Source: Clostridiales bacterium
GTDB lineage: Bacteria; Bacillota; Clostridia; Christensenellales; UBA1242
Assembly (NCBI GenBank): GCA_015055515.1
Contig: SVIC01000005.1
Location: 20,550 to 84,549 of the forward strand
Length of the DNA stretch: 64,000 bases
Direction: 5' to 3'
The notes under the pieces were generated by a model, which worked only from the letters and a program-made list of their open reading frames with translations, searched no databases and was not told where the DNA came from. Shown piece by piece: positions 3,001 to 53,084 of the stretch. The translations under genes were made by a program, and so were the position numbers. Each line of letters starts with the position of its first letter. Positions within the stretch are counted from its first letter, which is position 1.

Positions 3001-6000
3001 TCCTGTATGGAAGATGCAGAATAATGGTGTTCTTCCAGAATATGTTATAGGCAGTTATTCTAACTTCGAGATTATAGATTCATCTGCCAAATTAGAGAGT
3101 GCATTGTCTGATAGTAATACAACTAAGACTTATGCATTACTATACAACAAAGTAAATTCGAACAGTCCAATAGAGTACAAAATCTATATTAATGATGAGA
3201 ATTATACTTATAACTATGCTAAGTTCGATAGCGTATTCCGTGGCATACTTGCTGGATACTATTATGATGGCAATGCATTAACTGAAAGCAGTGGAACGAA
3301 TAATATTCCTACAATTAATATATACACTGGTAACTCTAAGGGTATATATTCATTAATTAGCAAGTTGGATTCAGCGATACTTAAGAATATTAACTTCAAT
3401 ATAGTAGTTACAAATGACTCTTCTGATTATATCGATGTATATGGATCGGATGGTGAGTCGTTCGGTTTACTAGCAACATCTATTACTAACTCGGAGATAA
3501 CTAATGTAAATATTACAGTTACTGGTAGTTCTAATAAGGCAATCAATATTAATCTTGTAGATGATGCTATTGGCGAAGGCATGAATAACGTTAAGAACTT
3601 CGGTCTAGTATTTGGTTCATCTATCAATACTACTATGAAGGGTATTTCGGTTAGCTTCGGTACTGATATTAATGTAACTTCCGGTATAGCAACTACAATA
3701 TCTGGAGCAATTGGTTACGCTAGTGGTAATATTATTGAGACAATGTCTGTAAGTGGAGCAAAATTATTTAATATCCAAATAGACAACAATAGAAAAGGCA
3801 ATAATACTGCACTTAATTATGCAACAGTTATTGCGAAGAACTATTACAATAGAATAGATAACTTAAGTAGTGATATAAATACTAAGATAAATTATTATAT
3901 TAATGTTGCTACGACCATTAATACATACGGATTGTATTTCGATGTGTATGGCGGAGGATTATTCGGTTATACATTATCTGGTACACTTGATGGCAGTGAA
4001 TATAAGGCAAGTAGTGCTGTAATAGATCTACCAAGGTCCACATCTAGTAGTCCTAGTAATGCAGTATATTATGGAGGCTTGTCGGGTTATGCTAGTTCAC
4101 ACAAGGTAACAGACACCAATTCTACATTGACTTCTATCACATTTACTGCAGATTATATGCATGCATATGTTGCAGGAATAATTGGTTATGGATTGTCTAT
4201 AGCAATGGGTGATGATAATAACGTAATTACATCCAAGACAGATATTAGTGTAAATCCAAAGGGATCTGGTAACTATTATGTTGCAGGAATAATTGGTTAT
4301 GACAGTGGCTCAATTATTAAGAATACTGTTAATCTGGGCACAATTAATATTGCTGATGATAGAGACAATGAGAGCATAGGTACAGCCAAGGTTTACGCTG
4401 GTGGTATATCAGCTATGGCTATTAATACAGAGTATGACAAGGTAACTTCTTATGCAGATGTTAAGACATTCCAAGCAGATGCCCACACTAGTCTTACTAG
4501 TGACCAAGCTTTGCTGGTTAAGGATGCTATATATTTTGTAGGTGGTATTATCGGTTATGCTAGAAATACCAAGATAAGTGATTTTGCAATGATGGGCGAT
4601 ATCTACTATGTGGTGGATGACGATTCTGCATTGTCAAACTTCTATGGTGGTATTATTGGTTATAGTAGACTTACTTCTATAACACTAAATGGTGGTCAGT
4701 CTTATGCTAGATTCTATGCATCAGATAGATCTCAAGATAAGCGTTATAATACTAATCTATATACTATTGCAGAAGGTTGTACTGCACAGAATACTACGAA
4801 TGTATATTATATCCAAGAATTCTATGCTAAGTACGCCGATCTGTCATATAGCAATAGCGATACATACGTTGATAGTAAGGGCGAGAATGTAAACTTTGCT
4901 CTTTACAATGGTACTCAGGTATTTGCATATCACGATATAGATAGCTTCAATGCCTTAGAGTATGGTAAATTACCAACATTAAACAATCAAGAATATGATA
5001 AAATTACAATAAATAACAATACTGAGGTTGACCTAAAAGACAACTTTGAAGAGTTTTATAACAAGATCAATGCAAAAGTTAATTATATAATTGTAGCAGA
5101 TACGACAACTGAAGTACCACAACCTCAAGAAAATAGTGTATTTGTAGTTAAGCCTAATATAGAAGTTGTATCTACTGGTGACATATTTATGAATACACTT
5201 GGTCCAGACGGAATTATTTCTGGCGTTAAGTTTAATGCATCAGAGGTTAATTGTATTACATCTGCTGATCGTAAGATAACTGGTTACATTCCATTTATGC
5301 ATACTAATAATGGTAGAATATTTAATTCTATTGCATATGGTGAGGTAGAACATGACTTCATAGCAAGTAGCGATAAGAAAGTGCAGATTAGCAGCTTTGT
5401 ATACAACAATAACGGTGATATTGTTCGTAGTGGATCAGTTATTACATATACAGGCAAGTTCGAATTTAATAACATACATACAGAGAAAGATGGTAAATTG
5501 GAGTCTATTACATCAAACTTAAATTTCTCAGGATTTGTATACAATAACAATGGTAGGATTGCAGATTGTTATTCTACTGCAAATATTGATCATATCAATA
5601 AGAACGAAGCTAAGAGAGATGATAATTTTGTAGTAAAAGGTGCTGGTAATACAGCATTGACAACATTTACTACATCTCGGATGAATTTCGCAGGATTGGT
5701 ATACAACCAATATACATCCGATCTAAATAAGTCAAATGATAATATTGGTATATCTGGCTCATTCCATTCGGGTAGATTGCATGATTATGAGACTAATCTG
5801 GTTAGATACTATACATTGAATAGTGAAACATCATTGTATTCGAAGGATACATATTCTAACTTCGGTAACAACAATTATGATAATGGTTATGCCGAGGCGT
5901 TGGAAGATGGTGATATGATGCACTTCATTGACAACGATGATACTGCATACAATATCTGGACAAAGTCTGGTAGTAGAGACATTAACTACAATATGTATTA

Positions 6001-9000
6001 TATTAATGATATTGCTATGACAAGAAAGGTAGAAATCAACGAAGTAAGTATTGTTAGAGCAAATAAATCATTATATGTTGCTACAGGAATTAAGGCAAGG
6101 TTTGACAACGTTGCTACATCAAAGCCTTTTGGTAATAACTATACAGCAGATGATTCAGAAATAACCTATGCTACAGATTCTCCAATTACTAATGGTAAAT
6201 ACTATACAGTGTATACTTTAGAGACAAAGTGGAATGATACAAATAGAAAATATAGTTTGTTCCAAGATGAGTCGGATGCAATAATTGTAGAGACTGCCAA
6301 AGATTTTGCAAGATTAATATTAGATTATTCAGCAACTGCTGTGGATAAGAATGTATACGTTCTAGCAGATGAATTGGATATGACAGGCCTTTGTGGTGGT
6401 AGCGGAATTTATTCTGTTGCTCTTGCAAAAGGCATATATGGTATTGGCGGCTCTGGCACAGGTGTTGTTATTAAGAATTTAACTTTGAATTCTCCACTTG
6501 TTCAGATTAATACTGGCGTAATATCTGGATTCGTATTTGATAATATTCAGGTATCAGATAGCAGTTCTGCTATTGTTGCTAAGAATAGCGGTACTATAGA
6601 ATGTATTACTATTAAAAATACAGCATTTACGGGCGAAGGTAAATACATTGGCCTTGTTGCTAGTACCAATGCTGGCACAATTAGTGGAGTATATGTTACA
6701 AATACATCATTGTCAGTGACAGAGAAAAACATTAATGGTGCAGTCGGAGGTCTTGTTGGTTACAACTCTTCAGGTGCAGTATCTTGCATTTATTATGGCA
6801 ATAGATCTGCTTCTAATAATTCTGGTTTGAGTATGTCAGTAACAGCACTTAGATATAACGTAGGTGGTTTAGTAGGTGAGAATGAAGCAACAATAAATCA
6901 TATTGCTATTGTTAACTCAACAATTTCTGCTCCATCTTCGGTATCTGTTGGTGGTGTTATAGGTTGGAATAAAGAATCATTAACAGGAGTAAGTTCAGCA
7001 GGAATATATGCATTAGTAAATAATACAACAATTGCAGGAGAGAACAATACAGGTGGATTTGTTGGTGAAAACGAAGAACAAATAAAAGGTTGTTCTACTA
7101 AGTTATTCTTAGATTCTGTATCTGTGTCTGGTGTATCAAAGGTTGGTGGATTTGCTGGTATTACTTCGGGAAGTATATCTAATTTATACATATATGATAT
7201 TAATGTAAATGCCACAAAAGATAATGTAGGTGGCGCAATAGGTACTACAACAGGTAATACTTCAGTGGAAATTTCGAATATTAACATTTATACATCCAAT
7301 CACGATATCAAGTCTAACAATGTAAATGCAGGTGGCGTAAACGTTGGTGGATTAGTGGGTAACTCCAGTGCATTGATAGAAGATGTCTTTGTTAGTGATA
7401 TCAATGTCAGGTCTACTAGTACATCTAAAAATGTCAATATTGGTGGTGTAGTAGGATACTCAATGGTAAGTATCGGTAACACAAATTCTTATGTAATAGC
7501 ACGTGGTATTTTGGTTAATGCTAGTGGTAATAATGTAGGTGGTATAGTAGGTTATATAACTGGTTGCGATATTGTCAATGCTATTGTTATGGCCAATGTT
7601 GGATCAAAGGCAAATGTACTTAATCAGATCACTTCAGTTCTTGGTGTCAATGTAGGAGGTATAGCAGGATTAGCAAATGATTCGGATATATCCAACTCAG
7701 TTGCAGAGAATATTACTTTATCTGGATATTATAAGGAGAATGAGAACAACGACAATGTATCTAATGTTGGTGGTATTGTAGGTAGTCTTAAGGATGGTAG
7801 TGTGAATAATGTATTAGTTACAGCCACATCTAGTGTGACCAACTCAATTACCACAACCGCAGGTTCTAATGATAATTCTAGATATATTGGCGGATTAGTA
7901 GGTTATCTTGATAATGCAACAAGTGGTACAAATGCAACTAGTGGCTCACTTAAAGATTGTTCTGTAGTTAATACTTATATCAATACTCCAAATAGTGATT
8001 ATGTAGGAGGATTGGTAGGTGGATATAATGGTCCATCATCTGTTACAGAGAATTCATTCAATAAATTCACTGGAATTAAAGAAGAAAATCTTAAGATAGA
8101 TTATTCGGCTACTAATACAACAATAGGTGTCAACATATCTGCTAGAAGTAATGTTGGCGGTGTTATTGGCTCTATTGTAAATGATACCAAGTGTACAATT
8201 ACAATTTCAAATATAACATTAAAAACAATAAACATAAATGCTTCTGGTACCTGTATAGGTGGTATCATTGGTGAGTTAATAAATGATAAGAGTTATATAT
8301 ACAAGGTTTCTATCACTGGTGGCGAAAATGAAGATTCTTATTCTAGAATATCTTCCTCATACAAGGTTTACGCTGGTATGGAATATAAAAATACTGGTGT
8401 GGGGGGTATTGTAGGCTATACTAAATCAACACTAATCCAGGGAGAGAATGCCAATAACGATTATCAAATCTCTGTATCAAATACCATTATAGATTCTGCA
8501 TTAATGTACACAGGCGGAATTGTTGGTCACGCAGTTGGCGGTTTAGCTTCTGGCGTAACAGTTGGCTTATCTGCTTCAGATGTAGAAAAAAAGACAGCTT
8601 TTGTTCTAAAGAATGTAACAATCAAATCATCTACTAGTTACATAGGTGGTGTGGCAGGATTTGTCAAAGGAGATGTAAATGGTACATATTATTCCAAGAA
8701 CGTAACTATCAATTCTACATCGGGATCTAAGAAAGTATCTAAGATAGGTGGATTATTTGGAGAACTCAATGGAACATTCCTAAATGGTAGTAGTGCATCC
8801 ACTTACTATGTGTTCTCTGATACCATAAAGATCACAGTAGACAATGGACAGTATAGTTTTGATGTTGAAAATCCTAGTACAATTACAAGAGGTATAGGTG
8901 GACTTATAGGTGTATTCAAAATGACAGACTCTATGGGCTCTATCGGTGCACAATCTATTAAGTTAGAAGAATTAACAATGGATGCGGCAGGCGAGAATAT

Positions 9001-12000
9001 TGGTGGCGTATATGGGTATATTGAGAAATCAGATAATACTGGAAAGGTTAATCTGACGTCTGGATATTTATATAATAGTACCATCAATGCTAGTGGAAAC
9101 AGTCAATATGTAGGTGGTGTAGCTGGTCATGTTATAGATGTAAATATGGTTAATTCGATTGTTAACTTAATTACAATTAATGTTTCTGGTAATATGGGCC
9201 ACTATGTTGGTGGTATTGTAGGATATACCAATGGCGATATTACATCTGCTAGTGTATCAGATTGGGGCAATGGTGTTAATATAACATCTCCTGGAATATA
9301 CTTAGGTGGTGTAGCTGGAAGATGCGATGGAACTATAAATGGTGCACATATGCTTAGTCCTGTCACTATAGTTTCTACATTCTCGGGCAAGTTTACTGTA
9401 TACAATGGTACACAAGGCGTAGGACAAACAGAAATATATGATGCTTATATAGGTGGTGTGGCTGGTTATGTAAACGCTATTGGAGAAAAAGACATAACAG
9501 TGCAAAATATTAAAATTACAGCTAGCAAAGGCTTAGTTGGTGGCGTAGCTGGTTATGTTGTAGGCGATTACAAAGCTATTACCAATGTGTATGGTGTAAA
9601 ACTATCTACATCAGGACACTCTGTGGGTGGTGTAGTAGGCTATCTTGGCGGAAATATGGTAAATGGCAGTCAAAGTAGCAAATCATCAATTCTTGTAGTT
9701 GGAGTAACAGAGTATGATACCATCTCTGGTGATAGCTATATTGGTGGTGTTGTAGGTGGTGGACAGGCATTAAGGTATTACGATGGTGGAGATTCTCATT
9801 ATATCCACAATAGGAACACTTCTCAGACATTTATGGCTGTATCCAACACTGATATGACATTTATTAATATTTACAAGGTAATGATGGGAGTTGCGACAGA
9901 TCCTACACCAAATGCTATGATTACTAATGAATATACATACAAATTTATGGATAAGTTCGAGGATGTAATTGCAGAAGTTAAATGTAGTGATATGACTGCA
10001 ACCAAATTCCAGACATACCTTAATATGAATGCAAAGTCGGTGCAGTTGGTTGCTAATGATAATAAGGTATATATGTTCGGTCAAGATTATAAATATAATA
10101 CAACTCACTTATATAACATGTATCTAAGCCTTGCCGAGAGATTGGGTGCTGATATTAGTATTAAATTCAAAGATGTAGATGCCAAAGATGGTACTAAATA
10201 TAAAGATGTAATGAAAGATATATCGGATCAAACAATAAAAAGAGATGATATAATATCTGTTACAATAGCAGAGCAATCATCTTTTGGTACTATAAATAGT
10301 GGTGGTACTTCTACATATTATATATCTGTGGATGATATGATTATCACTGGTGCAAATAATTATGTGGGTGGCGTCACAGGCTTTGCTACATCAGATCAGA
10401 TAATAGTAGATAACCAGGGTCACGTTATTAATACCAAGGTTACTGGTAAGAACTATGTAGGTGGCGTCATAGGTTATGCTAATAATGCTAGTGCTTTAGC
10501 ACAAGGAACAGTAAAATCTATTTCAGTAGAAGGAACGAATTATGTTGGAGGTTTTGTAGGTTACAATAATGGATCAGTCAATGCTTCTCCATATTCAACA
10601 AAGATTGTTGTCACAGGTAATGACTATGTTGGTGGTTTGGTTGGATTGAACAAGACAGTATTAAATGGAACTATGCAGGATAGTTCTATATCTGGCAATA
10701 ATTATGTTGGTGGATTGGCTGGGTATCAGCTAAACAATATAGCTACTAATAACTTAACAGCTGGTATAATTAATTCTACAGTAATAGGAAGGTCAAATGT
10801 AGGAGGAATTGTAGGAAAACTGTATAGTGAGAATCAATCCATCACTATCGGTAGTATGTTTGCAAAATATACAGCAGTTAAAGGATCTTCTAATGTTGGT
10901 GGTCTAATCGGAGAAGCTGATGTGTATCATTTATACAATAGTGAAGGTTACTATGTTGGTGTATATGAGAGTACAGTAAAATCTGAAGAAAATATTACAA
11001 ATGATTATTCAGCTGTAGGTGGAATTATCGGACACGCCAAGATAAACACAAGCGAATCAAATAAAGCAATTTTCATAAAGCATGCAGATGTTGTAAAAAC
11101 TGCAGTATCTGGAATGTCTGGTGTGGGGGGCATAATTGGAGTAATGGAAGGATATTATGCTATTGAACAAAGTAATATTGTTGGAGATAAACTTGGAGAA
11201 TCTCAGATATTGGGCAACACTGCAGTGGGTGGTGCAATAGGAGTATTACAAGATTCTGCGGGTTGTTCACCTGCGAAGTTATATCACTTAAGTATTATAA
11301 ATGTAATGGATTATGGAATAGGCAATGCGAATACCAATAATGTTGGTGGCGCAATAGGTTATATGAATAGTGATACAAATATGGCTCAGTTACAAGGTTC
11401 ATTTAATATTGTTAATGGTGTCCATACCTCACCAATAGCGCTAGGTTCTGCTGAAATAAATAACAACGCAATAGGTACAGAATATGATAAATATACTTAT
11501 TCATCTTTTGGATCTAATACGAAATTAGCTATCATAGGAAACTCTAACGTAGGTGGAGTTGTAGGAGCAATGGGTAAAATTGTTGAAGAAGATGATATAG
11601 ACGAAGATTTGTCAAACAATACTATTGAGGTAAATAATGCAGGATTTAACATAACAAATATCTCAATCAATGGAACAACCAATGTAGGTGGATTATTTGG
11701 ATCTCTAGATTGTATAGATGTGTCAGAATTGATTATTGATTATAAGACAGAAGGTAAGACAACTAATTTAATGGACGCTGTTAGCATTACTTGTAATGGA
11801 GAGAATGCTGGTGGTATTGCAGGCAAGGTTTCTAATTCGATCTTTAGATCTGGTCACATTAAGACTTATTCTGTAATAGTTAATGCCCAGGGCAATAATG
11901 CTGGTGGCGTTATAGGTGTGTTAGAAAACAGCAGATATTATATAGAGACGGCTGTATTGCCACGTATTAATAGTATTGCCGATAATGTAGGAGGTATTAT

Positions 12001-17709: not shown

Positions 17710-17905
17710 TTAAATTTTGGTAAAAATTTCCAAATAAATGGAATAATATCCCAAATCTTACACATTCTAGACTTAAACAGGAGAGTTCTTTTGTAGCCTC
17801 GTATTTATCGCTATGAAGATAGATAAGCATTTACTTGTATTTTAAGCTTGGTTGACGCCTCATTTAGAAAAATTTACAAAATGGCTTCATATCGATGAAA
17901 TATAG

Positions 17906-17932
17906 TTGACATTTTTTCTATTAAAGTATAAA
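17906..17932 (+). promoter_or_regulatory. putative sigma-A-type promoter of the Ig-repeat surface protein gene
   Basis: TTGACA (17906-17911), then TATAAA (17927-17932). The spacer is only 15 nt, which is short. Confidence 0.4.
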
Positions 17933-17982
17933 CTCTACTTGTTACAAATTATAAACACAATTAAGGAGAAAAGATTACTATT

Positions 17983-20900
17983 ATGAAAGGCAACAATATT
18001 ATTAAGCAATTATCAAAAGTTTTAACATTAGTAGTTTTGGTTTTTGCATTCCTTTGCTCTCCTATCACAAAGTTGATTACTAAAGTTGGCAAAGTATTTG
18101 CTGACAATTCTAGCAGTCAATTGGACGACGTGGAAGGCGCAAATATCCAAGTAGAAGGATTTAACAATACAGGAGAGGTTGGCAAACCTGTGTATTTGCC
18201 AAGAGTTTTTGTGGCTGGTAGTGAATACGGTCCAAAGACAAATGCCGATGCTGGTGTAATATACGAGGTATGGGATTCGGCTAATAAGACAAAACTTACA
18301 GAAGAGATCGATGGTGACTCAACAAATGGTTACTATTTCACACCGGAGAAATCTGGAGTGTATACTCTTAAGATCTATTCTAATGTAGATGGCAAATTGA
18401 GTACAGTGGTAGAGGATTTGCAAATCAATGTATCTAAGTCCGATGTAACAATGACTGTAGCTAGTTCTGCAGTAGTAAAATATGGCGATGATGCATATGC
18501 GTTACCATCTAGATTGGCTTTGTCTAGTATTACAGACCCAGCAGAAGGTGAGATTTTTGCTGTTCCTGGTCCAACAGTGGAAGGTGAAGCAGAAGGAAAC
18601 GTTATTGTTACTTGTATTCCTGCGGGATCTACTGGTGATGGATCAACTGGCAATCCAGCATATACTATGAAGAGAAATGAGATAAAGAATGCTGCTAACG
18701 AGGTAGTAGGCTCTTTCTATACATTTAATGAAGCAGATATAATTGCTATTAGAGGTGCTGCAAAATACGGTACTTATACATTCAAGTACACTTATGTATC
18801 TAATGGCATAAAGCTAGGCGATTCTGTAATCAAGACTTGTGAAGTTACTAGCGACGCAAGCTTTGCAGATGATATTAAGTTAGAGATTTCTTCATTAGTT
18901 TCATCTACTGAGCTTACTTATGGCGAGATTGGCACATGGTATACTTTGCCTACAGCAACTGTTGTAGATGCTAATTCTGGTTCTAGCGATGCAGTTCCAT
19001 CTATACTTGAAATCAAGGTTACACCTAGCACATCTATAACTGGTGCTACTATAGAGCAAGATGGATATAAGTTCAAGGCAGACAAACTAGGCACATATAT
19101 GATTACTTATGTGGCTACTATTCCATATACAGATAAGACTGTAGAGAAGAACTTCCTAGTAGAATTAAAAGATGAGACAGCTCCTACAATTATGTTTGTA
19201 GATAGTTATGTTAAGGCAGATATTATGACAAATGAGAGCCTTGATTCAGAGGATGAATTTGTTGAGTATTTGAAGGAAAATAAAGATGCGACTGACACAA
19301 TTAAGTCAGTATATGTATTAGGTGCAGATGGTGTAAATATTGATATTCCAGCAATATATGCTAGCGACAATTCTGCAACTGGCGAGTATACACTTACTAG
19401 AAAGATTACTTATGCTTCTAATAGCCAAAGTACTACATTTAACGAAGAATTGAATAAAGTAAAACAACATAAGGTTACTGAACCTGGTGTGTATACTATT
19501 ACATTCGAGGCTACAGATGGTAATGAGCGTAAAGCAGTAGCAAGTAAGACAATTGCTGTTGTTAGTGAAGACATTCTTAAGAACTGTGCTAGTACTTTAC
19601 AAGGTACAACTGTTGCAGATCTAGAAGATGTTGATAAGCCAAGCATTGTTATTGGCTCTGTTCCTAGAAGTATTGCATCAAATGAGACTCTTACTTTTGC
19701 TATGCCTACTACAGCAGACTCTATTGCTAAGGCATTAAGTGATGTGACAGGATTCGGTAGATTGAAGACATCTACTACTTGGTCAAGCAATGTTGATCTT
19801 ACTGCTAAGTTGGTAGCTTACAATGCTAGTACAAATGCTTTTGTTGCTGAACATCCATTAAAAGATGAGGATATTACATCTGATAATAAGTATTCTATAG
19901 ATATGTCAGATGCTAAGTTGGATGCATTCAAGACAGCAATTGGTAACACAGCGGTATATTTCAGAGTAGAATATTCTGCTATGACAGATTGGATGACAGC
20001 GTTATCACTTGCTCCTGCTACTGATAGATCTACTAAGATTGAATATGTAGACGTAGAGGATACTACTGCTGCAACAATTGCAATAGCTGAGGCTAACGGA
20101 TTATTTGTTGCATTAGAGAATGATAACTTTGCAGCAATTAAGGCTACATTGGCTAAATATGGTATTACAGCAGATGATGTGGATGATTTTGTACTAGAAG
20201 ACAATGGTATGATCAAGATTACTACTGCAGGTGGCGACAAGTATATCGCTCCATTCAACCAATATTCATCTGATAATAAGATGATGGTGAAGTTGCCACA
20301 ATTGTTAATTCAAGATGCTGAAGATATGACATCATTATCTATTACAGCTTCTATTGCAGATGAATTGGGTAATAGTAAAACATTGGTTGCTAGTTATGAT
20401 AGCGTATTGAATGGTGTATACAAGGTGTCACTAGGTGAGGTAGAACTTGCTAATGCTGGTCAATATACAGTTACAGTAAAAGCAGTGGATAAGGGCGGTA
20501 ATATATCTGTATATTCTTATGCAATTATGGTAAATGACACTACTGCTCCATCAGACGTAGTGTTGGATGCAGAGATTGCTGGCGAGAGTACTATTACTAC
20601 AACTTACTACACTGGTCCATTTATTGAATTCCCTAGTGCTAAGGTTATAGACAATACTAATCCAGATAGCAAATATACAGTAGAATTAGTATCTTATCCA
20701 AAGAATGCTAGAATTACTCAAAATATCTATAACAAGGGTTTTGCTACACTTACAGCAGGTACTTATGAGATTAAGTATACATGTGATGATGGCAATGGCA
20801 ATGATCCTCTTGTAAAGACTTATACTCTAGAAGTAAAAGAAAAAGATTATACTAAGATCGAAGTGAACGAAGATTTATTTAATGCAAACTTCAGCTATGA

Positions 20901-21576
20901 TTTCGTTGCTGATACTGGTAGCACAACAATGAAGGTTGTTATACCATTTGGTCTTGCTATGAATGAATATGATTCTGAGATCAATAATACAGAGATCACT
21001 CCAGTAGTTAAGAATAAGAACAATGTTACTCAGACTGTTACTGCAGAGAATGGTAACTTTATATTCAAGGCAACTCAAGGTAAATATACTGTAGAGTACA
21101 AGCAAGGTACAGTAACTAAGTCTTATACTCTATATATTGGTGATACTGATGCTCCTACACTTACTTGGACAACTACTCCTCCTACAACATTAAAGGTTGG
21201 TGATACTTGGGGTAAAGGTATCAAGGATACTTTCGAGATTTATGATATCAATAAGGGCGCAAGAACAGAGATTACTGATTGTACTATAACTATTGTAAAT
21301 CCTAGCGATGAGAGCACAGTTTATGACGGAATTTCTGATTATAAGTTCGACAAAGAAGGAACTTATAAGGTTAAGATTACGTTCGAGGATGAGGCTGGTA
21401 ACAAGGTTACAGAGACAAAGTCTATCGAAGTAAAATCTAATGATGTTGATAAGACAAATAATCCTACAAATGTTGTTGGAACAATTCTATTAATTGCATC
21501 TATACTGGTTGTAGGTGGTGTTGTGGCATACTTAATTCTATCTTCTAAGAAGAAGGGGAAGAAGTCTGATAAATAA
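17983..21576 (+). CDS. large surface protein with tandem Ig-like (HYR/DUF5011-like) domains and a C-terminal transmembrane anchor
   Basis: N-terminal signal/TM segment (VLTLVVLVFAFLCSP). Recurrent domain-boundary motifs ETAPTIMFVD, DTTAPSDVVLD, DTDAPTLTWT and DVDKPSIVIG. C-terminal TM plus basic tail (ILLIASILVVGGVVAYLILSSKKKGKKSDK). No LPXTG. Confidence 0.75.
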   Translation: MKGNNIIKQLSKVLTLVVLVFAFLCSPITKLITKVGKVFADNSSSQLDDVEGANIQVEGFNNTGEVGKPVYLPRVFVAGSEYGPKTNADAGVIYEVWDSANKTKLTEEIDGDSTNGYYFTPEKSGVYTLKIYSNVDGKLSTVVEDLQINVSKSDVTMTVASSAVVKYGDDAYALPSRLALSSITDPAEGEIFAVPGPTVEGEAEGNVIVTCIPAGSTGDGSTGNPAYTMKRNEIKNAANEVVGSFYTFNEADIIAIRGAAKYGTYTFKYTYVSNGIKLGDSVIKTCEVTSDASFADDIKLEISSLVSSTELTYGEIGTWYTLPTATVVDANSGSSDAVPSILEIKVTPSTSITGATIEQDGYKFKADKLGTYMITYVATIPYTDKTVEKNFLVELKDETAPTIMFVDSYVKADIMTNESLDSEDEFVEYLKENKDATDTIKSVYVLGADGVNIDIPAIYASDNSATGEYTLTRKITYASNSQSTTFNEELNKVKQHKVTEPGVYTITFEATDGNERKAVASKTIAVVSEDILKNCASTLQGTTVADLEDVDKPSIVIGSVPRSIASNETLTFAMPTTADSIAKALSDVTGFGRLKTSTTWSSNVDLTAKLVAYNASTNAFVAEHPLKDEDITSDNKYSIDMSDAKLDAFKTAIGNTAVYFRVEYSAMTDWMTALSLAPATDRSTKIEYVDVEDTTAATIAIAEANGLFVALENDNFAAIKATLAKYGITADDVDDFVLEDNGMIKITTAGGDKYIAPFNQYSSDNKMMVKLPQLLIQDAEDMTSLSITASIADELGNSKTLVASYDSVLNGVYKVSLGEVELANAGQYTVTVKAVDKGGNISVYSYAIMVNDTTAPSDVVLDAEIAGESTITTTYYTGPFIEFPSAKVIDNTNPDSKYTVELVSYPKNARITQNIYNKGFATLTAGTYEIKYTCDDGNGNDPLVKTYTLEVKEKDYTKIEVNEDLFNANFSYDFVADTGSTTMKVVIPFGLAMNEYDSEINNTEITPVVKNKNNVTQTVTAENGNFIFKATQGKYTVEYKQGTVTKSYTLYIGDTDAPTLTWTTTPPTTLKVGDTWGKGIKDTFEIYDINKGARTEITDCTITIVNPSDESTVYDGISDYKFDKEGTYKVKITFEDEAGNKVTETKSIEVKSNDVDKTNNPTNVVGTILLIASILVVGGVVAYLILSSKKKGKKSDK

Positions 21577-21582
21577 TGATAA

Positions 21583-21616
21583 ATAAGTACTGAAATATTT
21601 CAGTACTTATTTTTTT
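21583..21616 (+). terminator. intrinsic terminator after the surface protein gene
   Basis: Perfect 28-nt palindrome ATAAGTACTGAAAT/ATTTCAGTACTTAT followed by T6. Confidence 0.8.
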
Positions 21617-21773
21617 GCATAATATGCTTATTTTTTAGCATGTTTGTAATAAATATGTTCTAGTTTGTTATATTTTTGATTTATTTTATATTTGTAATAC
21701 TTGTGTTTTATAGTCTAGCAAAAAGTGTTATTTGTCAAATGCGGTCAAATAGTTTGCTATCATATATATTTTA

Positions 21774-21802
21774 TTGTAAAATACATAATATAAATGTATA
21801 AT
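21774..21802 (+). promoter_or_regulatory. putative sigma-A-type promoter of the three-gene orphan operon
   Basis: TTGTAA, 17-nt spacer, TATAAT. Confidence 0.5.
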
Positions 21803-21864
21803 TGTGTCTATTTGTAGACAGTTGGCAGATGTTTATAGCCATATACACTTGGAGGATGGAGAAT

Positions 21865-24483
21865 ATGGTAGCATTTCTTATAGGTGCTCTTGCGGTAATA
21901 GTAACTGGTGTGTGTGTAATAGGTATTAACAACCTAGTTGTACTATTTTATAGATTTTTATATTTTATTGGATCATGGTTGTTAAGATTAATAGAATATG
22001 TTCAAAGATTATTTAGAAAATTGTGTGGTCTTGACTCTGCAGGGATAGATGGAAATTTGGAGTCAGATCCGTTGTGGGCATTAGTAAATAATAGTGCGGT
22101 ACAAACTGCATTTTTGTCTATCCTGTTTTTATCAATTGTATTAGTATTTATCTTTGCAATGATTCAGATTATTAGGCTAGAATATACTACCGAGGGATCT
22201 AAGAATGCAAAGGGCCCAATTATTAAGTCTGCTATAAAATCAGTATTTTTCTTTGCGTTTATACCAATTGTTAGTCTTATTGGTATAGGAGTTAGTAATG
22301 TATTAATAGGTCTGGTAGAGCAAGTTACCAATCAGGGTCAGGCAACATCTGTTGCAGGACTCGTCTTTACAGTGGCTGTTGAGAATAATGACTCCAACCC
22401 ATATAGGGCTTGTCAAAATAACAGAGGTAAAAAGTCTGTGGAATGGAGTTATAATGCTGAAAGCATTTGGGATGTAATAAGTGCTTCTATAAGTTCTGTT
22501 GGTCAGGTTTTTGGGGAATCTCTTGGTTATGACGATATATCAGGAATTAAAGGTGATGTAAATGCTGCTGATGGAGGGGATTCAACAGCAGGTAGAAAAA
22601 AAGTTTATTATTATGGTGATAAAATATACGGTGCACAATTTGTCGGTCATGATGACTGGGATGAACTATTTAATAATGACCCTGGTCAATTAGATGCATA
22701 TTTTTCTAGACTAAGTTTTACAAAGGATGAGGGGTTATCTGCATTTACCGTAGAATCAAAGTCTACAGATGGTAAAGCTGTAGAACTAGAAGTCGGAGAT
22801 ATATTAAATTATACAAACTCGGAAGCTGTATATTATTTCTATAATGTAAGTAAGATAGACTATATAATGTTGTTTTTAGGTGGATGGTTTGTTCTTAAGG
22901 CGCTTATTACCTCCGCTTTTGGTGTGGCCATGCGTGTATATAAGGTTGTTATATTATTTATAATATCTCCATATCCGGTCTCTTTGTCTGTTCTCGATGG
23001 GGGTAGTGCATTAAATAAATGGAAGAGTTCATTCTTAAAAGAATTGTTCTCTGCTTATGGTGTAGTTGTTGGCTTAAATTTATTTTTAATTTTGTTTGCG
23101 GAGATATCTGAGAATAAAATATTTGAATTCTTTACAGGTGAGCCGCTAGGTGGAATATTTAATAGTTTGACTAGACTTGTAATGCTATTGATAGGTTGCT
23201 TAATGATAGGAGATATTGTAGGTATTATTTCTGATTATATTGGCGGTGGCAATGTAATGAAGGAAGGACAAGGCATGCAGAAGCAGGTCACCGATATGGC
23301 AAAGAAGGCTGGCTCTGCTGCAATTGGTGGTCTTACCCTTGCCGCAGCCGGAGCTACAGCGATTGGTGGTGGCATTGGTGCTCTTAAGGGCATGCGTTCT
23401 CTAAATAAAATAGCAAAGGCAAATAAGAAAGATGAAGAAATTATAAATAGTGAGAATCCTGAAGTTACGGAGGAGGAGAAGAAAGAGGCACAAGAGAGAA
23501 TTAATGCCAGAAAAGAAAAGACTGAACGAGTAACACAGAAGTTAGCGCAAAATCAACGTCATTCATTAAGAGGGGCGATGATTTATAAGAATGCAATGAA
23601 GTCAACAAAGGCTTTTCAATATGTCAATAAAGGTGCTTTTGGATTATTAGAGAGTGAAAATGTAGCAAAAATAGATAAAGCAATAGCTGGCAAAGGAGAT
23701 GAATTCGAAAGCGTTATTAAGTCTGCTGGAGCAGCAGATAAGGCAAAAGCAGCAAGAAAAGAAAGTAGGCGTGATGATCTGCGTAAAGAAATTAAAGATA
23801 ATGGTGGTAGTGCTAGAGGCCTTAATCAGTTGCTTGTCAAAGCGCATGATAAGTACTCTATGTCAACGGAAAATGTTTCCCGTGTTAGAACTGAAAACGA
23901 AACTAGGATAAAGCAGGGCGATGAGGCAGCTGCATTTATGAAGAAAAACAAGGAAAAGTATAAAGAAGCTTCCCAAACATCACAAAATGCTACTATACAG
24001 ATTATGAATGCGAATTTAGACCTAAAAGAAACCAGGAATTTGTCCGATTTTAACAAAGATTTAATAGTAAAAGGTGCAGAAGACCAAGAAAAAGCAAAAC
24101 AATCACTTGATATACTTAAAAATGTTGATACAATGGCGGAAGGTAAAGAAAGAGATGAAGCTATTTTGAAAGCTGCTAGTTTAATGCGAGAAGCATATGG
24201 TCTTAATGATAAGGATTCTGATAGCGATGTGAAGACAAAAGTTGAAGGTAAGTTGAGTTTCGATGAAGGCACATACGATAAGATGACAAAAGCCGTTAAA
24301 GATGGCGTGTCTGCTGATAGTGTGGCAAAAATGGCAGGAGCAGACCAAAGAGAATACTTTGGAAAAATTTTAAATGATTCGTTTGCTCATGCTATAGAGA
24401 AATTGGAAAATATTAAAGCAGATGCTAAGACAGAAAATGGATTACAAGAATTGCTAAGGGCTATATTATCAAAGATGAAATAG
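21865..24483 (+). CDS. polytopic membrane protein (about 7 TM segments plus a Gly/Ala-rich segment) with a ~360-aa Lys/Glu-rich helical C-terminal tail; possibly VirB6/TrbL-like
   Basis: GGAGGA lies 8 nt before the ATG at 21865 (MVAFLIGALAV...); the track start at 21802 lacks an RBS. Hydrophobic segments are read by eye. The core VVILFIISPYPVSLSVLDGGSALNKWKSSF resembles the TrbL/VirB6 loop pattern. The tail runs from about 23390. Confidence 0.7.
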   Translation: MVAFLIGALAVIVTGVCVIGINNLVVLFYRFLYFIGSWLLRLIEYVQRLFRKLCGLDSAGIDGNLESDPLWALVNNSAVQTAFLSILFLSIVLVFIFAMIQIIRLEYTTEGSKNAKGPIIKSAIKSVFFFAFIPIVSLIGIGVSNVLIGLVEQVTNQGQATSVAGLVFTVAVENNDSNPYRACQNNRGKKSVEWSYNAESIWDVISASISSVGQVFGESLGYDDISGIKGDVNAADGGDSTAGRKKVYYYGDKIYGAQFVGHDDWDELFNNDPGQLDAYFSRLSFTKDEGLSAFTVESKSTDGKAVELEVGDILNYTNSEAVYYFYNVSKIDYIMLFLGGWFVLKALITSAFGVAMRVYKVVILFIISPYPVSLSVLDGGSALNKWKSSFLKELFSAYGVVVGLNLFLILFAEISENKIFEFFTGEPLGGIFNSLTRLVMLLIGCLMIGDIVGIISDYIGGGNVMKEGQGMQKQVTDMAKKAGSAAIGGLTLAAAGATAIGGGIGALKGMRSLNKIAKANKKDEEIINSENPEVTEEEKKEAQERINARKEKTERVTQKLAQNQRHSLRGAMIYKNAMKSTKAFQYVNKGAFGLLESENVAKIDKAIAGKGDEFESVIKSAGAADKAKAARKESRRDDLRKEIKDNGGSARGLNQLLVKAHDKYSMSTENVSRVRTENETRIKQGDEAAAFMKKNKEKYKEASQTSQNATIQIMNANLDLKETRNLSDFNKDLIVKGAEDQEKAKQSLDILKNVDTMAEGKERDEAILKAASLMREAYGLNDKDSDSDVKTKVEGKLSFDEGTYDKMTKAVKDGVSADSVAKMAGADQREYFGKILNDSFAHAIEKLENIKADAKTENGLQELLRAILSKMK

Positions 24484-24492
24484 GAGAAGATT

Positions 24493-25332
24493 ATGTTAAC
24501 AGATAGTATAAGAATGCGGAAAATTCGTTATGATGTATTAAGATATCTTGAAGAGTTTAAGTTAACTTCTCGAATAGAAAAATATCTGGAAATAGAAAAT
24601 AAAGAGTTGGAAATTGGCAAAGAATTAATTGCAGAAGCAAAATTAAACTATTGTGAAAATATAGCAGATGTTGAAGCATCTTTAAGAAAATATCTATCGA
24701 ATGTTTCTAATTATAATTCAGTAGAACACTCTATTTTGCTGGATTATATAATGCCGCTAGAATCTGCAACTGATAATTATCAAAGTTTGTATGATGAGTT
24801 GTATAATTTTATGTTTCAATTAGTGCAAATACAGAAGATTCAAGCTAAATTGTTAGAGACTTTTATGGATACCGTATACATAGGTGAAGATAACAATATT
24901 TATAGTGTTGTTGATAATAAAGTATTAATAAATAAAAGTGATATTATTGGTAAGGCAGATGTTGATGATGATTACGAATATCAAGTTATAGACTATGTTT
25001 CTGATAAAATATTAAGTACAAAAAATGAAATTATATTACAATTCGAATACAGTGATGACGGATATTACATATCTGGAAATGGTGTTGAATATTTCAATGA
25101 TAATGATAAAGAATCTATTATATCAGAAGTGGAGTCAAGGTTGTCAATATTGTTTAGTGATATTGATACTACATCTAATGAAGATAATATAGAAAATAAT
25201 GAACAAATAGATGATTTTATAGATGATGTAACAGCTGTAAAAAAGAAAACGATAACTAAAGAATCTGAAGAGAGAATTAATAATCTTAATAAGTCATTAA
25301 AAGAATCTGCAACAAAAATTAAAGGAAAATAA
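24493..25332 (+). CDS. hypothetical acidic soluble protein
   Basis: RBS GGAGAAG, 9 nt after the upstream stop. No TM segment and no motif I recognise. D/E/N-rich. Confidence 0.65.
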   Translation: MLTDSIRMRKIRYDVLRYLEEFKLTSRIEKYLEIENKELEIGKELIAEAKLNYCENIADVEASLRKYLSNVSNYNSVEHSILLDYIMPLESATDNYQSLYDELYNFMFQLVQIQKIQAKLLETFMDTVYIGEDNNIYSVVDNKVLINKSDIIGKADVDDDYEYQVIDYVSDKILSTKNEIILQFEYSDDGYYISGNGVEYFNDNDKESIISEVESRLSILFSDIDTTSNEDNIENNEQIDDFIDDVTAVKKKTITKESEERINNLNKSLKESATKIKGK

Positions 25333-25334
25333 AT

Positions 25335-26972
25335 ATGTCAGAAAGTATAAAAGATGTTGGGTTGTTGGCTACATCATGGAAGAAAAGGATTTCCGATCCG
25401 TTATTCCTAGATATGATGTTAGAAATAATGCTTAGTGAGCTGGATGCGCTTAAAAAATATCTTGCCTCTGTTGCTAGTCAGAAAAAACTAGAACAAGCAT
25501 CAAAGAAACAAATAAAAGATGAAAGTGTAATAAATTCTGAACAGAGTGTATTAAGAAGATTAAAAGAACATGGAATAGATCCAAACAATGCGACAGATGA
25601 GCAAAAAAAGTTTTATGCTAAATATATTAATCCAGAAGGACAATCAATATTTGATGAATTTACAAAAATAGCAGATTCTAAATATATTGGTAAAGGTATT
25701 AGTATGGAAGCTATGGCCTCTATAGATGTTCTAAAATCTGTTTTTGATAAGGCTCTAGAGGGCGAATCTGTATTGGCATTAGAGTTTGTGTCGCGTATGA
25801 TAGAATCTCCTACGCTCATGTATGATCTTGTGCCATCTTCACAATTACAATTATTATTGGATAGAGTGCCTAAAAAGAACGGAAAAAAAGGACATCTGGA
25901 ATCAAAGAAAGAGTTGGTGAAAGATGGAAGTGATGACTCTGTTAAGCTAATAGCTAAAGCTGACTTGTCGCTATTTGGTCTAGATGGTGAGGCTATTTTC
26001 GCTGCAAGATGCATGATTGAGAGCTTAGGTCTTGATTTGACTAAGCCTATACAAAAGGATAAACTAAAGTCTTTAGTGGAGACATTTAACAAATTTTATG
26101 ATATTTGCAAAGAGAGATCTCAAGTCTCTATTAATGAGGGAGAAAAAGATATTAAAGAGAAGTCTGCAGATGCAAAAAAAGTAAAAGAAAGTGGCAGAGT
26201 ATTTACTGAAGAAGGAAAAAATGTTATAAAAAGTGCAATTAATGCAAAAGATGATTACAATGTCGAAATGAAAAATGCAAAGACTATTGTTAAACAATTA
26301 GAAGAAAAAATACTTTCTGGAAAAAGTTTGACAGATGAGGAAAAAACTCAAAAGAGTAAACTAGACAAATTGATAGCTCAGGATAGTATTCCTAGATATA
26401 AGGGCAATTCAGATGTTCAACAATCTGTATTGAACGATGTGTATGCTAGATTAAATATAAATGCAGAGAATGTTAGTGCTACAGAAAAAGATATTATAGA
26501 AGACTGTGTAACAAAAACAGCTCAAGAGTTATCCGAATACTTAGTTTCTATAATCAAGAAATCAGATTCAAAGGTGGATAGTAAAGTATTTGACCAAATA
26601 GCTAATTATGTAAAATTATGCGGAGATAATATGTATTCACAAGTTGAAAATGCTGATCTGGCAGAAGCATTGAAAAATGGTTCGGTCTCCTCAAATATGT
26701 TAATAAATGAGCATGTTGATAATCTAAAGAATTTCTATAAGAGTGATGAAAATATACAAGCATTATTGCAAACTAATAATGTGCTTAATGAAGGAGAAAA
26801 AGGTTTTGTTGAGTTTGCGGTTTGGCAGATTGCTGAAAAGGTGTATTCTATAGACGAACGAGAAAATAATATAGGTATAGAGACTAAGACCTTTGCTCAA
26901 TATATGCAACCAGTCTTAGATGCTGCAAAAGAAAAGGGACTATATTCTACCGAAACAGAAAAAATAATGTAA
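25335..26972 (+). CDS. hypothetical Lys/Glu-rich, predominantly helical soluble protein
   Basis: Starts 2 nt after the upstream stop (coupled). No TM segment and no recognisable catalytic motif. Confidence 0.65.
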   Translation: MSESIKDVGLLATSWKKRISDPLFLDMMLEIMLSELDALKKYLASVASQKKLEQASKKQIKDESVINSEQSVLRRLKEHGIDPNNATDEQKKFYAKYINPEGQSIFDEFTKIADSKYIGKGISMEAMASIDVLKSVFDKALEGESVLALEFVSRMIESPTLMYDLVPSSQLQLLLDRVPKKNGKKGHLESKKELVKDGSDDSVKLIAKADLSLFGLDGEAIFAARCMIESLGLDLTKPIQKDKLKSLVETFNKFYDICKERSQVSINEGEKDIKEKSADAKKVKESGRVFTEEGKNVIKSAINAKDDYNVEMKNAKTIVKQLEEKILSGKSLTDEEKTQKSKLDKLIAQDSIPRYKGNSDVQQSVLNDVYARLNINAENVSATEKDIIEDCVTKTAQELSEYLVSIIKKSDSKVDSKVFDQIANYVKLCGDNMYSQVENADLAEALKNGSVSSNMLINEHVDNLKNFYKSDENIQALLQTNNVLNEGEKGFVEFAVWQIAEKVYSIDERENNIGIETKTFAQYMQPVLDAAKEKGLYSTETEKIM

Positions 26973-26996
26973 AAAGGCTGAGAAAGCCTTTTTTTG
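26973..26996 (+). terminator. intrinsic terminator ending the orphan operon
   Basis: AAAAAGGCT-gagaa-AGCCTTTTTT. Confidence 0.7.
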
Positions 26997-34594: not shown

Positions 34595-36586
34595 ATGCAA
34601 AATAAAAGTAAGATAATATTTATAAGCATTATATCTGTTATGCTTCTATGTATAATGGGTCTAACCATAGGTATTGTATTGGTTGCAAGTAATGCTGAGC
34701 AAGATAACAATATAACTATTAGTTATGAGGCCAATAATGTAGATGCAACCATTACTGCATCTGGTATCAACTATGCATCTTCAGAAGATACAACTGGTGA
34801 AAATATTCTCTTATCAGATGGAAAACAGTCTGGACTAACGACAGGTACACTTACATTCAAGGCAAGTCAGTCGGAGGTGAGCGGTACACTCTCTTTTGAT
34901 TATGCTCTTCTTACTGCTACAGGCAGAGCGGTATATACATTTAAGATTAAGAACACAGCAGATGTGTCGAATACTAGATCATTGAAATTAATGGCATCAG
35001 TACAAGATACTTCTAATTTAGACAATATCGAAGTCAAGTTCGGCGGTAGCGAGGCCAGTGCAATAGAGTCAACGGTAGGATATGTAGAGATTGGTGGAGG
35101 CCAGAATACCAATACACTTGTAATGATGGTAACTGTAGATAATACTACTCTAGATGTAACTAATGCAACGGTGGATATACACTTACAATTATCATGCGAC
35201 CTAGATGTGTCTGTGTCTGGTACTACAGCAGTTGCACCTGCAATACAGCCTGTAGCTAAACAATATTTCGAAGGTTGGTATTTGGATGAGGCCTTAACTA
35301 CTAAGGCAACATTTCCACTGCAATCAAATACTAGTGTAACATTGTATCCTAAATATATGGAAAGTACATCAGGTATGACATATTCCTATAGTAGCACAAC
35401 CAAAAGTTATTTATTAACAAAAGGTTTAGATCAAGCAAATGTTGTTATTCCAAATTCATATAATGATGGAACTCATGGTGTTGCTCCGGTAAGCAAGGTT
35501 GCAAGATCAGCATTTAATGGTTTTACTAATCTTAATAGTGTAGTAATTCCTAATAGCGTCACAAGTATAGAGACCTATGCATTCTATCAATGTTCTGCTC
35601 TTAGTAATGTTGTCATCCCATATAGTGTAAATAGTATAGGTAATGCAGCATTCTATGCATGTAGTAGCCTCGGTAGTATTGTGATTCCAGAAGGTGTTAT
35701 CAGTATTGGCAACAACACATTTGCTTATTGTTCTAGTCTTAGTAGCGTTTCTATTCCGGATAGTGTAACCAATATAGGACAATATGCTTTCAGTAATTGT
35801 AGCGGTCTTTCTGAAATAACAATACCGGGTAATGTTACCAGTATTGGTGCGAACGCTTTTGCTTATTGTTCTGCTTTAACAGATATAACAATTCCATCTA
35901 GTGTAACAAACATGGGCAACTATGTATTTTATCAATGTGAGAATTTAATTAATGTAACACTAGAAGAAGGTATTAAGTCTATACCAAATTGTGCTTTTGG
36001 TGGATGCATAAACTTGTTAAATATAAATATCCCAGATAGTATAACAAGTATTAGTCCATACGCTTTCCATAGTTGTAATAGTCTTACTAGTATAACTATA
36101 CCGGATAGTGTTACTAGTATTGGGAATAATGCTTTCTATTCTTGTTCTGCACTAACAAGTATAACAATTCCAGATAGTGTAAAAAATATTGGATCTAATT
36201 TGTTTTATGATTGTGGATCCCTAAGTAATGTAACGTTGTCTAATAATATTACTAGTATAGGAGAGTCAACATTCTTTGGTTGTACTAAACTAACGGAAAT
36301 AATTATTCCAGCTAGCGTGACTAGTATAGGCACATATGCTTTTTATGAATGCAAAGCTTTAGAAAGTGTAACTATTCCTAGTAATGTAGCTAGCATTGGT
36401 TCAGTGGTGTTCTTTGGATGTTCCAATCTCACAACTCTATCATTCGATGAGCCATCAGGATGGTATAAGTATGATAGTGAGAATGACACATATTCCGATA
36501 GTTATACTTTGTCTAGTGCTAGCGATAATGCAACTAACTTTACATCAAATCAAAATTATTATAATTATAGCTGGGAGAGAAAATAA
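34595..36586 (+). CDS. surface protein: N-terminal signal anchor, shared ~215-aa module, Listeria-Bacteroides (Flg_new) repeat, BspA-type leucine-rich repeats
   Basis: About 13 consecutive ~23-aa units of the type IP(D/N)SVTSIG.(Y/N)AF..C..L..(I/V)TIP (LRR_5/BspA type). FEGWYLDEALTTKATFPL is a Flg_new-like motif. The N-terminus is paralogous to the gene at 58715-59824. Confidence 0.85.
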   Translation: MQNKSKIIFISIISVMLLCIMGLTIGIVLVASNAEQDNNITISYEANNVDATITASGINYASSEDTTGENILLSDGKQSGLTTGTLTFKASQSEVSGTLSFDYALLTATGRAVYTFKIKNTADVSNTRSLKLMASVQDTSNLDNIEVKFGGSEASAIESTVGYVEIGGGQNTNTLVMMVTVDNTTLDVTNATVDIHLQLSCDLDVSVSGTTAVAPAIQPVAKQYFEGWYLDEALTTKATFPLQSNTSVTLYPKYMESTSGMTYSYSSTTKSYLLTKGLDQANVVIPNSYNDGTHGVAPVSKVARSAFNGFTNLNSVVIPNSVTSIETYAFYQCSALSNVVIPYSVNSIGNAAFYACSSLGSIVIPEGVISIGNNTFAYCSSLSSVSIPDSVTNIGQYAFSNCSGLSEITIPGNVTSIGANAFAYCSALTDITIPSSVTNMGNYVFYQCENLINVTLEEGIKSIPNCAFGGCINLLNINIPDSITSISPYAFHSCNSLTSITIPDSVTSIGNNAFYSCSALTSITIPDSVKNIGSNLFYDCGSLSNVTLSNNITSIGESTFFGCTKLTEIIIPASVTSIGTYAFYECKALESVTIPSNVASIGSVVFFGCSNLTTLSFDEPSGWYKYDSENDTYSDSYTLSSASDNATNFTSNQNYYNYSWERK

Positions 36587-49813: not shown

Positions 49814-49920
49814 GTTGTATTGTGTCATTTCGTGTAGAGATGCTAGAGGTATCTTTAGATCCAATTCATTATTCACTGCTCTTAACAATATGATATTGCA
49901 AACATATATGGGAGGGTTGT

Positions 49921-50829: not shown

Positions 50830-50874
50830 AATTCGTTATTATGCACTCTCTTTATTGCAATTATTGGCATATCT

Positions 50875-51282: not shown

Positions 51283-51289
51283 GTGTCGT

Positions 51290-51484: not shown

Positions 51485-51497
51485 TAAAGGTGGAGTT

Positions 51498-53071: not shown

Positions 53072-53084
53072 AGGAGAGGGATGA

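Follow-up and report, generated by a model that had tools for sequence, protein, structure and literature searches.

The dacA–plsX interval

We analysed a stretch of 64,000 nucleotides (nt) from contig SVIC01000005.1 of a Clostridiales bacterium (assembly GCA_015055515.1, positions 20,550 to 84,549 of the forward strand), referred to below as the window, and concentrated on the four + strand open reading frames (ORFs) that lie between dacA and plsX, here called g1, g2, g3, and g4. A previous description of the same DNA, made from its letters and ORFs without database searches (the sequence-only reading), had regarded these genes as an orphan envelope cluster that might constitute an undescribed trans-envelope system. 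All four ORFs were confirmed, and together with their putative transcription signals they are laid out as follows.

17906..17982, + strand: g1 promoter (TTGACA-17-TAAACT/TATAAA) and 5′ untranslated region (UTR) with a ribosome-binding site (RBS), from a promoter scan and cross-species alignment
17983..21576, + strand: g1, 1197 amino acids (aa), from the ORF list
21581..21612, + strand: terminator-like hairpin 3′ of g1, a 14-bp stem and then a T-run
21754..21782, + strand: promoter of the g2-g3-g4 unit (TTGCTA-17-TAAAAT, with TG 5′ of it), from a promoter scan and conserved across species
21865..24483, + strand: g2, 872 aa, with a probable ATG start and an RBS
24493..25332, + strand: g3, 279 aa, from the ORF list
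25335..26972, + strand: g4, 545 aa, from the ORF list
26971..26993, + strand: terminator-like hairpin 3′ of g4, from a hairpin scan

This arrangement points to two transcription units, g1 on its own and g2–g4 as an apparent operon with its own promoter. The tight coupling previously noted for g2, g3, and g4 ahead of one terminator was borne out, as the g2/g3 and g3/g4 spacers are 9 and 2 nt long, each downstream gene has an RBS, and one hairpin follows g4. As listed, the g2 ORF begins at a TTG codon (position 21802) and encodes 893 aa. The likely start, in our judgement, is the ATG at 21865, because GGAGGA lies 5′ of it and because the resulting 872 aa is the length given in public records (hypothetical protein, E7361_02360).

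When the dacA–g1 spacers of six species were aligned, ~75 nt comprising the promoter and 5′ UTR proved almost identical, and the proteins themselves are 42–61% identical. The promoter 5′ of g2 is conserved between species as well, and differs in sequence from that of g1. Near-invariance of this kind, despite protein identities of 33–61%, suggests a conserved regulator-binding or leader element 5′ of g1 and g2. Farther upstream in the dacA/g1 spacer is a GC-rich extended hairpin (17590–17710), the structured element of the sequence-only reading, which may be a terminator or a REP-like (repetitive extragenic palindromic) element. Its sequence is not kept between species, the others carrying different GC-rich hairpins at this place, and an Rfam scan of the window matched no RNA family, this hairpin included.

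Because the window also encodes dacA, plsX-rnc-smc-ftsY, ruvX, and the spoIIIA operon, the locus would appear to be part of the core chromosome in a lineage that has a cell wall and sporulation genes. The spoIIIAA-AH operon itself is found at about 49900–54500 on the + strand, and the lineage thus keeps sporulation-channel genes. GC content is uniform in the window (~34%), and the cluster matches its surroundings. Contigs identical to that of the window were found in several JGI metagenome samples.

The membrane protein g2 and its homologues in type IV secretion loci

Hydropathy analysis placed ~7–8 hydrophobic helices of g2 in residues 1–165 and 321–460. Between these two groups is an acidic insert (residues 166–320) with a net charge of −13, and the C-terminal part of the protein (residues 501–872) is a helical tail rich in K, E, and A with a net charge of +8. 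The earlier description of g2 as a protein of about seven transmembrane (TM) segments with a long, K/E-rich helical tail was therefore sound.

Two NCBIfam models recognized g2 above their cut-offs: NF045848 (MMCAP2_0566 family conjugal transfer protein) with 120.4 bits against a cut-off of 90, and NF045889 (Mbov_0396 family transmembrane protein of integrative and conjugative elements, ICEs) with 78.8 bits against 70. A homologue from one of the sister loci described below (L017; L numbers denote individual loci throughout) scored 119.7 bits with NF045848 (cut-off 90) and 68.5 bits with NF045889 (cut-off 70). In our estimation g2 is very probably a member of this membrane-protein family of Mycoplasma ICEs and type IV secretion systems (T4SSs), and presumably the subunit that fills the role of VirB6. 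In Pfam, the family seems to have been named DUF8208 most recently, and a distant member of the g2 family matches that entry weakly. The label "orphan", applied to all four genes in the sequence-only reading, consequently stands for g1, g3, and g4, which have no family match and seem to be the only true orphans of the cluster, but not for g2.

Of the 24 residues that never vary among the three types of locus in which we found the family, g2 retains every one (24/24, including a QIIRxEYTTEGSKN loop), and its tail contains a conserved C-terminal helix with the pattern D-x-K-x-x-N...LLRxL. Since these invariant residues are kept, and since the promoters 5′ of g1 and g2 are conserved, g2 looks functional. 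By sequence, no relative with a solved structure was found for g2. An AlphaFold2 (AF2) model based on 16 sequences had a mean confidence (pLDDT) of 64, with values of 70–86 in the membrane-core helices. When this model was compared with 350,542 PDB chains using Foldseek, the best structural neighbour was TrwI/VirB6 of R388 (PDB 7o3v, 8rtd), which occupied ranks 1–5, 8, 9, and 30 with E-values of 1.2–8.7 that are not significant. The top five chains (E 1.2–2.4, probability 0.38–0.87) aligned at a TM-score of ~0.3 over ~140 columns and 13–14% identity, likewise not significant. The ranking can be taken as weak but convergent support for a VirB6-like g2.

Relatives of g2 are few. An index of 5.8 billion proteins held 16, and a profile search gave the same 16. 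Relatives come from metagenome-assembled genomes (MAGs) of uncultured Clostridia or "Christensenella sp.", and their isolate and contig names point to the human gut (Hadza) and to ruminants. A scan of species-representative genomes supplied two further contexts in addition to that of the window (window-type), namely sister loci ("type B") and solitary ones ("type C").

Type B loci (L017–L022, L024, L026, L028, and L029) encode, in this order, a giant protein, one to four small two-TM proteins, a divergently transcribed protein of 670 aa, the homologue of g2, a protein of 884 aa, and an acidic protein of 329–1850 aa. The small proteins are T4SS pilins (PF18895, VirB2-like) that also match NF045849 (the pilin-like family Mbov_0395). 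The protein of 670 aa is a CD1115-type VirD4 coupling protein (PF02534, PF12696, NF045973), and the 884-aa protein is a VirB4-like ATPase, with 589.3 bits against a cut-off of 590 for NF045975 ("Mbov_0397 family ICE conjugal transfer ATPase"). The core of pilin, TM protein, and VirB4 mirrors the Mbov_0395-0396-0397 order of the Mycoplasma ICE. A further locus, L027, is related to type B, and there VirD4 comes after the g2 homologue. The sister loci are chromosomal, being flanked by fba, thyX/tmk, gapdh/mnmA, or spoVA, and the Pfam gene tables available for three of them (L115, L116, and L119) list neither a relaxase nor an integrase family within 10 kb. In type C (L010/L011), a lone g2 homologue is located between secA and the gene for rubrerythrin. 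A 4359-aa leucine-rich-repeat protein is encoded near the solitary homologue in L010.

A metagenome scan with a VirB4 alignment yielded 80 loci. Most comprise a pilin, a protein of ~240 aa, a g2-like protein (often a short, tail-less one of ~465 aa), and VirB4. In about 25 of the 80, VirB4 stands alone amid housekeeping genes: directly after secY...rpoA-rplQ (neighbours identified solely by gene size and number of TM segments), before an apparent groES/groEL, or directly before a lipoprotein of 2000–3339 aa (examples are L054, L059, L056, L050, L061, L063–L066, and L070). None of the 80 loci could be tied to the organism of the window. Because so many of them carry VirB4 on its own, T4SS genes in this group can, as far as gene order tells, be dispersed, and the genome of the window may still have an ATPase even though none is encoded nearby. 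Three loci (L086, L093, and L099) have a g2-type domain fused into proteins of 1800–2300 aa, with three g2-type genes per locus. Further giant surface proteins or lipoproteins are likewise encoded next to T4SS genes at related loci.

One of the closest known systems is the Mycoplasma ICE (NF045889 Mbov_0396/NF045848 MMCAP2_0566). Besides the family match and the polytopic character of g2, the neighbours in the sister loci belong to the same families and occur in the same order. In Mycoplasma ICEs, CDS16 is an 8-TM protein and likely a VirB6-like subunit (PMC12857230), and a transposon insertion in cds16 abolishes ICEA transfer (PMC6030558). From the consecutive numbering of Mbov_0395–0397 and CDS15–17, we infer that the NCBIfam family of g2 corresponds to CDS16. 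Unlike the Mycoplasma proteins, g2 is encoded outside any ICE, lacks a neighbouring VirB4, VirD4, or pilin gene, and belongs to a walled host with sporulation genes. It is also much longer, the family profile covering ~320 positions and g2 ~870 aa, with the excess made up by the acidic insert (~155 aa) and the tail (~370 aa).

Size and architecture also invite comparison with the Gram-positive MPF-FA conjugation systems, whose VirB6 homologues are "extended VirB6" proteins of 700–900 aa with unstructured parts, such as Orf15 of Tn916 (PMC12857230). They resemble g2 in size class, in combining hydrophobic helices with large hydrophilic or poorly structured extensions, and in their presumed translocon role. 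They differ in that no sequence-level match to g2 is shown and in that their genes reside on mobile elements that also code for VirB4, VirD4, VirB8, a hydrolase, and a relaxase. One g2 homologue matches the TM family pLS20_p028 weakly (E 1.8e-5, under the cut-off).

The partners of g2 and the inheritance of the cluster

The first gene of the cluster encodes a protein with a signal-like N-terminal hydrophobic segment (residues 14–32), a C-terminal TM segment (1168–1186), and a basic tail, KKKGKKSDK. It has no LPXTG sorting signal, the C-terminus reading ...NNPTNVVG-TM-KKKGKKSDK. A strand signature of immunoglobulin (Ig)-like domains, G-x-Y-x-V/I...D-x-x-G-N, occurs eight times and flanks a central region of ~260 aa. 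Scores with the relevant Pfam and NCBIfam families are all sub-threshold (PKD 23.4 vs 23.5; Big_13 22 vs 27; OmpL47-type 25 vs 40). The notion of an anchored Ig-like protein with its own terminator is in keeping with the eight signatures, the C-terminal TM segment, and the hairpin at 21581–21612. Members of the g1 family are colinear, have a constant length of 1180–1205 aa, and were seen only in window-type loci; in L015 the gene is split into two ORFs. The C-terminus of g1 also has marginal similarity to a 1121-aa two-TM protein encoded ~5 kb from a solitary VirB4. Homology of g1, or of the giant protein encoded upstream of dacA, to the giants beside other T4SS loci was considered and set aside, there being merely two marginal BLAST matches.

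The products of g3 and g4 are soluble and presumably cytoplasmic. As the sequence-only reading had it, g3 (279 aa) is acidic, with a net charge of −25, and g4 (545 aa) is rich in K (12.7%) and E (9.4%). Just 14 clusters among 1.84 billion representative proteins correspond to g3. Its AF2 model, a confident one (pLDDT 81, predicted TM-score 0.70), is helical with a small beta element, and the predicted fold has no match in PDB or BFVD. Five orthologues of g4 (446–730 aa), when aligned, share a conserved N-domain of ~260 aa with the motifs REHG, FY..FI, and DLS..GLDG, after which comes a variable, low-complexity remainder. Neither g3 nor g4 matched a Pfam, NCBIfam, PHROG, or PADLOC family, whether scanned singly or as families, and PDB held no relative of either by sequence. 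Hidden Markov models (HMMs) of the two found nothing in the sister-type or solitary-type loci. That g3 or g4 might be a diverged form of the large acidic protein downstream of the sister VirB4 was rejected on the same grounds, and those acidic proteins align poorly among themselves.

The cluster occupies the same place in at least six related Clostridia MAG species, in the conserved order giant gene, (lipoprotein), dacA, g1, g2, g3, g4, plsX, rnc, smc, ftsY. The full g1–g4 order between dacA and plsX was seen in L007/L012/L113, L008/L016, L013, and L015, and partial views (L014, L023, and L114) have the same arrangement as far as the contigs reach. The four genes are thus kept together as a set within their own clade. 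Identities to the window proteins are graded along the locus.

plsX, smc, and ftsY: 72–84%
dacA: 61–72%
rnc: 47–53%
g1: 42–61%
g2: 33–51%
g3: 30–33%
g4: 24–27%

As synteny is held in at least six species and g1–g4 have identities of 24–61% against 47–84% for the flanking housekeeping proteins, the cluster is vertically inherited and fast-evolving.

Interpretation of the cluster, and its neighbours

The idea of an undescribed system did not fully survive these comparisons. Since g2 falls in a named T4SS/ICE family and its homologues lie within VirD4–pilin–VirB4 clusters of sister lineages, the cluster is better regarded as a derivative of type IV secretion. We lean towards the view that it represents a chromosomally fixed, vertically inherited branch of the monoderm T4SS of the Mycoplasma-ICE kind (MPF-FATA-like). 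In the lineage of the window, g2 has become separated from the VirB4, VirD4, and pilin genes and now stands beside the lineage-specific g3 and g4, and the T4SS ATPases that serve the cluster are probably encoded elsewhere in the genome. What is new here is a VirB6-type subunit that has been uncoupled from its ATPases, has a fixed place in the core chromosome, and is associated with three new protein families.

Several observations weigh against a working T4SS branch. A Pfam scan of g2 (E up to 1) returned no VirB6-type family, the single weak match being an unrelated one to MerT (E 0.39). The fold similarity to VirB6 is statistically non-significant and was obtained with a mediocre model (pLDDT 64), and the cytoplasmic placement of the g2 tail derives from its charge only. 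The sister T4SS loci contain nothing recognizable as a counterpart of g1, g3, or g4, so that adjacency and co-occurrence alone link them to secretion. Finally, the remaining parts of the machinery are missing locally. The sequence-only reading had recognized no ATPase nearby, and rightly so: tblastn and HMM searches with sister-locus queries found no VirB4, VirD4, or pilin in the 64-kb window, nor was one found within 10 kb in any window-type locus. A scaffold of 1.08 Mb that bears the L007 cluster carries none of the best 120 VirB4 relatives, a list that reaches down to 63% identity and that a VirB4 of the 50–55% class would escape. For these best 120 relatives and the five contexts inspected, the loci were all of the sister type.

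Such absences are what would be expected under an ATPase-independent exaptation, in which the VirB6-like g2 serves as a membrane platform or anchor to which the g1 fibre, and perhaps also the giant protein, is attached, with g3 and g4 as cytoplasmic scaffolds and no T4SS-type translocation. Besides the lack of VirB4, VirD4, and pilin genes in the window and in every window-type locus, and the lack of listed VirB4 relatives on the L007 scaffold, it accommodates the gain by g2 of lineage-specific partners that do not occur in canonical loci, and the existence of a solitary homologue in the secA/rubrerythrin context. However, g2 keeps all residues that are invariant in its VirB4-adjacent homologues, which speaks for persisting contacts with the same partners; related organisms with a solitary VirB4 show that dispersal is common; and the identity limit of the VirB4 list (63% or more) blunts the scaffold result. 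We hold this alternative to be possible, though on the unlikely side.

If the cluster is instead a branch of the T4SS, as we prefer, it is doubtful that it transmits itself. No g2 relatives were found on plasmids (PLSDB), phages (INPHARED), or viral contigs (IMG/VR), a result by which we ruled out a mobile element. The Pfam gene tables of the window's contig and of the window-type loci list no relaxase or integrase family, although no search was aimed at these across the whole window. The fixed chromosomal position, the lack of plasmid and phage relatives, and the lack of a relaxase in the three sister-type loci with Pfam tables together argue against self-transmissible conjugation. Other origins were considered and rejected. 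For a phage or defence origin, PHROGs and PADLOC matched nothing; for a type VII, pilus, or Tad system, no EssC/FtsK-type or secretion-ATPase domain appears in the Pfam gene tables around the cluster, with no dedicated search made.

A trans-envelope assembly, as envisaged by the sequence-only reading, is plausible as the role of the cluster, and a mechanism can be outlined. By analogy with the pentameric TrwI/VirB6, g2 would oligomerize in the membrane as a translocon or platform. Its acidic insert (166–320) would face the cell wall and may contact g1. In view of its C-terminal anchor, about eight Ig-like domains, and fixed length, g1 could supply a wall-spanning or cell-contact structure. On the cytoplasmic side, g3 and g4, and probably also VirB4 and VirD4 encoded elsewhere, would dock onto the basic g2 tail, in which the C-terminal helix is conserved. 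The likely job of such an assembly would be to pass macromolecules between cells, or to take them up, in a contact-dependent manner rather than to transfer itself, because the evidence for a mobile element is negative.

Large surface proteins encoded beside channel genes are known from PrgB of pCF10 and from the CDS14 lipoprotein of Mycoplasma ICEA, the latter being essential for mating (PMC6030558). The likeness makes a cell-contact role plausible for g1. In contrast to both, g1 has no homology to them, is anchored by a C-terminal TM segment rather than by LPXTG or a lipobox, and is of fixed length.

Nearly all known functions of Gram-positive T4SSs concern DNA transfer only (review, PMC12857230). 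According to this review, Patescibacteria are the sole group of monoderms for which VirB2-like pilins and pilin arrays are reported, and their chromosomal system is essential for growth (PMC12857230). In Southlakia epibionticum, a chromosomal, relaxase-less T4SS has arrays of VirB2-like pilins (PMC12102498, PMC12857230). The sister loci are alike in being chromosomal, in encoding one to four PF18895 pilins, VirD4, a VirB6-like protein, and VirB4, in their monoderm, MPF-FATA-like character, and in having no relaxase in the three for which tables exist. The window cluster differs, as it lacks pilins and ATPases nearby and its host is a Clostridia lineage with sporulation genes.

A more far-reaching proposal, which we offer tentatively and consider rather improbable as it stands, is that the lineage and its sisters carry a chromosomal, non-conjugative, Mycoplasma-ICE-like T4SS that has been repurposed, as has been proposed for Patescibacteria, for obligate interaction between cells (the uptake or delivery of macromolecules), and of which the window holds the "envelope and adaptor" half. 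The T4SS genes, clustered or dispersed, would then operate with VirB2-like pilins and giant surface proteins, a point that we put forward with equal reserve. Just as speculatively, the VirB6 tail would in that case be bound by g3 and g4 as novel adaptors or substrates in the cytoplasm, with g1 as a new type of stalk across the wall.

A different division of the locus would make g1 an independent adhesin or S-layer-like protein and restrict the functional unit to g2–g4, which is compatible with both the T4SS-derived and the exaptation reading. The gene has a promoter and terminator of its own, the promoter of the g2 unit differs from it in sequence, and g1 has no sequence link to T4SS loci except the weak C-terminal likeness to the 1121-aa protein near a solitary VirB4. 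Against this, among the loci fetched g1 occurs only with g2–g4, never without them, always directly upstream and with fixed length, while variable adhesins usually vary in repeat number. We therefore think an independent g1 doubtful.

That the cluster is a decaying remnant of an integrated conjugative element, with genes that no longer work, is highly improbable: a single T4SS family member is left, and ATPases, pilins, and relaxase are counted as locally absent (the relaxase without a dedicated search), but the four ORFs are intact in most of at least six species that have diverged to 24–61% identity across g1–g4, the order, flanks, promoters, and invariant residues are conserved, and the GC content is like that of the surroundings.

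Beyond the window, the sister and metagenome loci suggest that uncultured gut and rumen Clostridia possess relaxase-less, chromosomal, Mycoplasma-ICE-like T4SSs, accompanied by giant surface proteins and VirB2-like pilins and with genes that can be scattered. Provided that this machinery is functional, it would offer a route to non-conjugative roles of T4SSs in abundant gut Firmicutes, and would give a context to four families of "hypothetical" genes and to Pfam DUF8208.

Two syntenic neighbours lie upstream of dacA. The giant gene, which is possibly associated with the cluster, is represented by its 3′ part at 2–14962 on the + strand, where it is open from position 2 and runs off the window. 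More than 4980 aa are visible (4914 aa are listed), and the syntenic orthologues have 9219–9461 aa. Its product, which is taken to be a surface protein, is strongly acidic and has no Pfam or NCBIfam domain, and the C-terminus has no relative of solved structure by sequence. The last ~200 aa contain a Cys...His...Asp pattern (GNAAC...SHYVVI...YDPG) that it shares with L013 and L023, and the orthologue in L007 has a weak NlpC/P60 match (E 0.008) below the cut-off. The C-terminal domain of the giant protein may be a papain-like hydrolase. The second neighbour, at 15068..16153 on the − strand, encodes an acidic lipoprotein of 361 aa with the lipobox LLSSC, no family match, and an internal duplication in which THTLCPTCF occurs twice. 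A homologue with 57% identity is found at the same position in L023. Downstream of the cluster, at 34595–36586 on the + strand, the window also encodes a BspA-type leucine-rich-repeat surface protein of 663 aa (LRR_5, E 8.5e-110).

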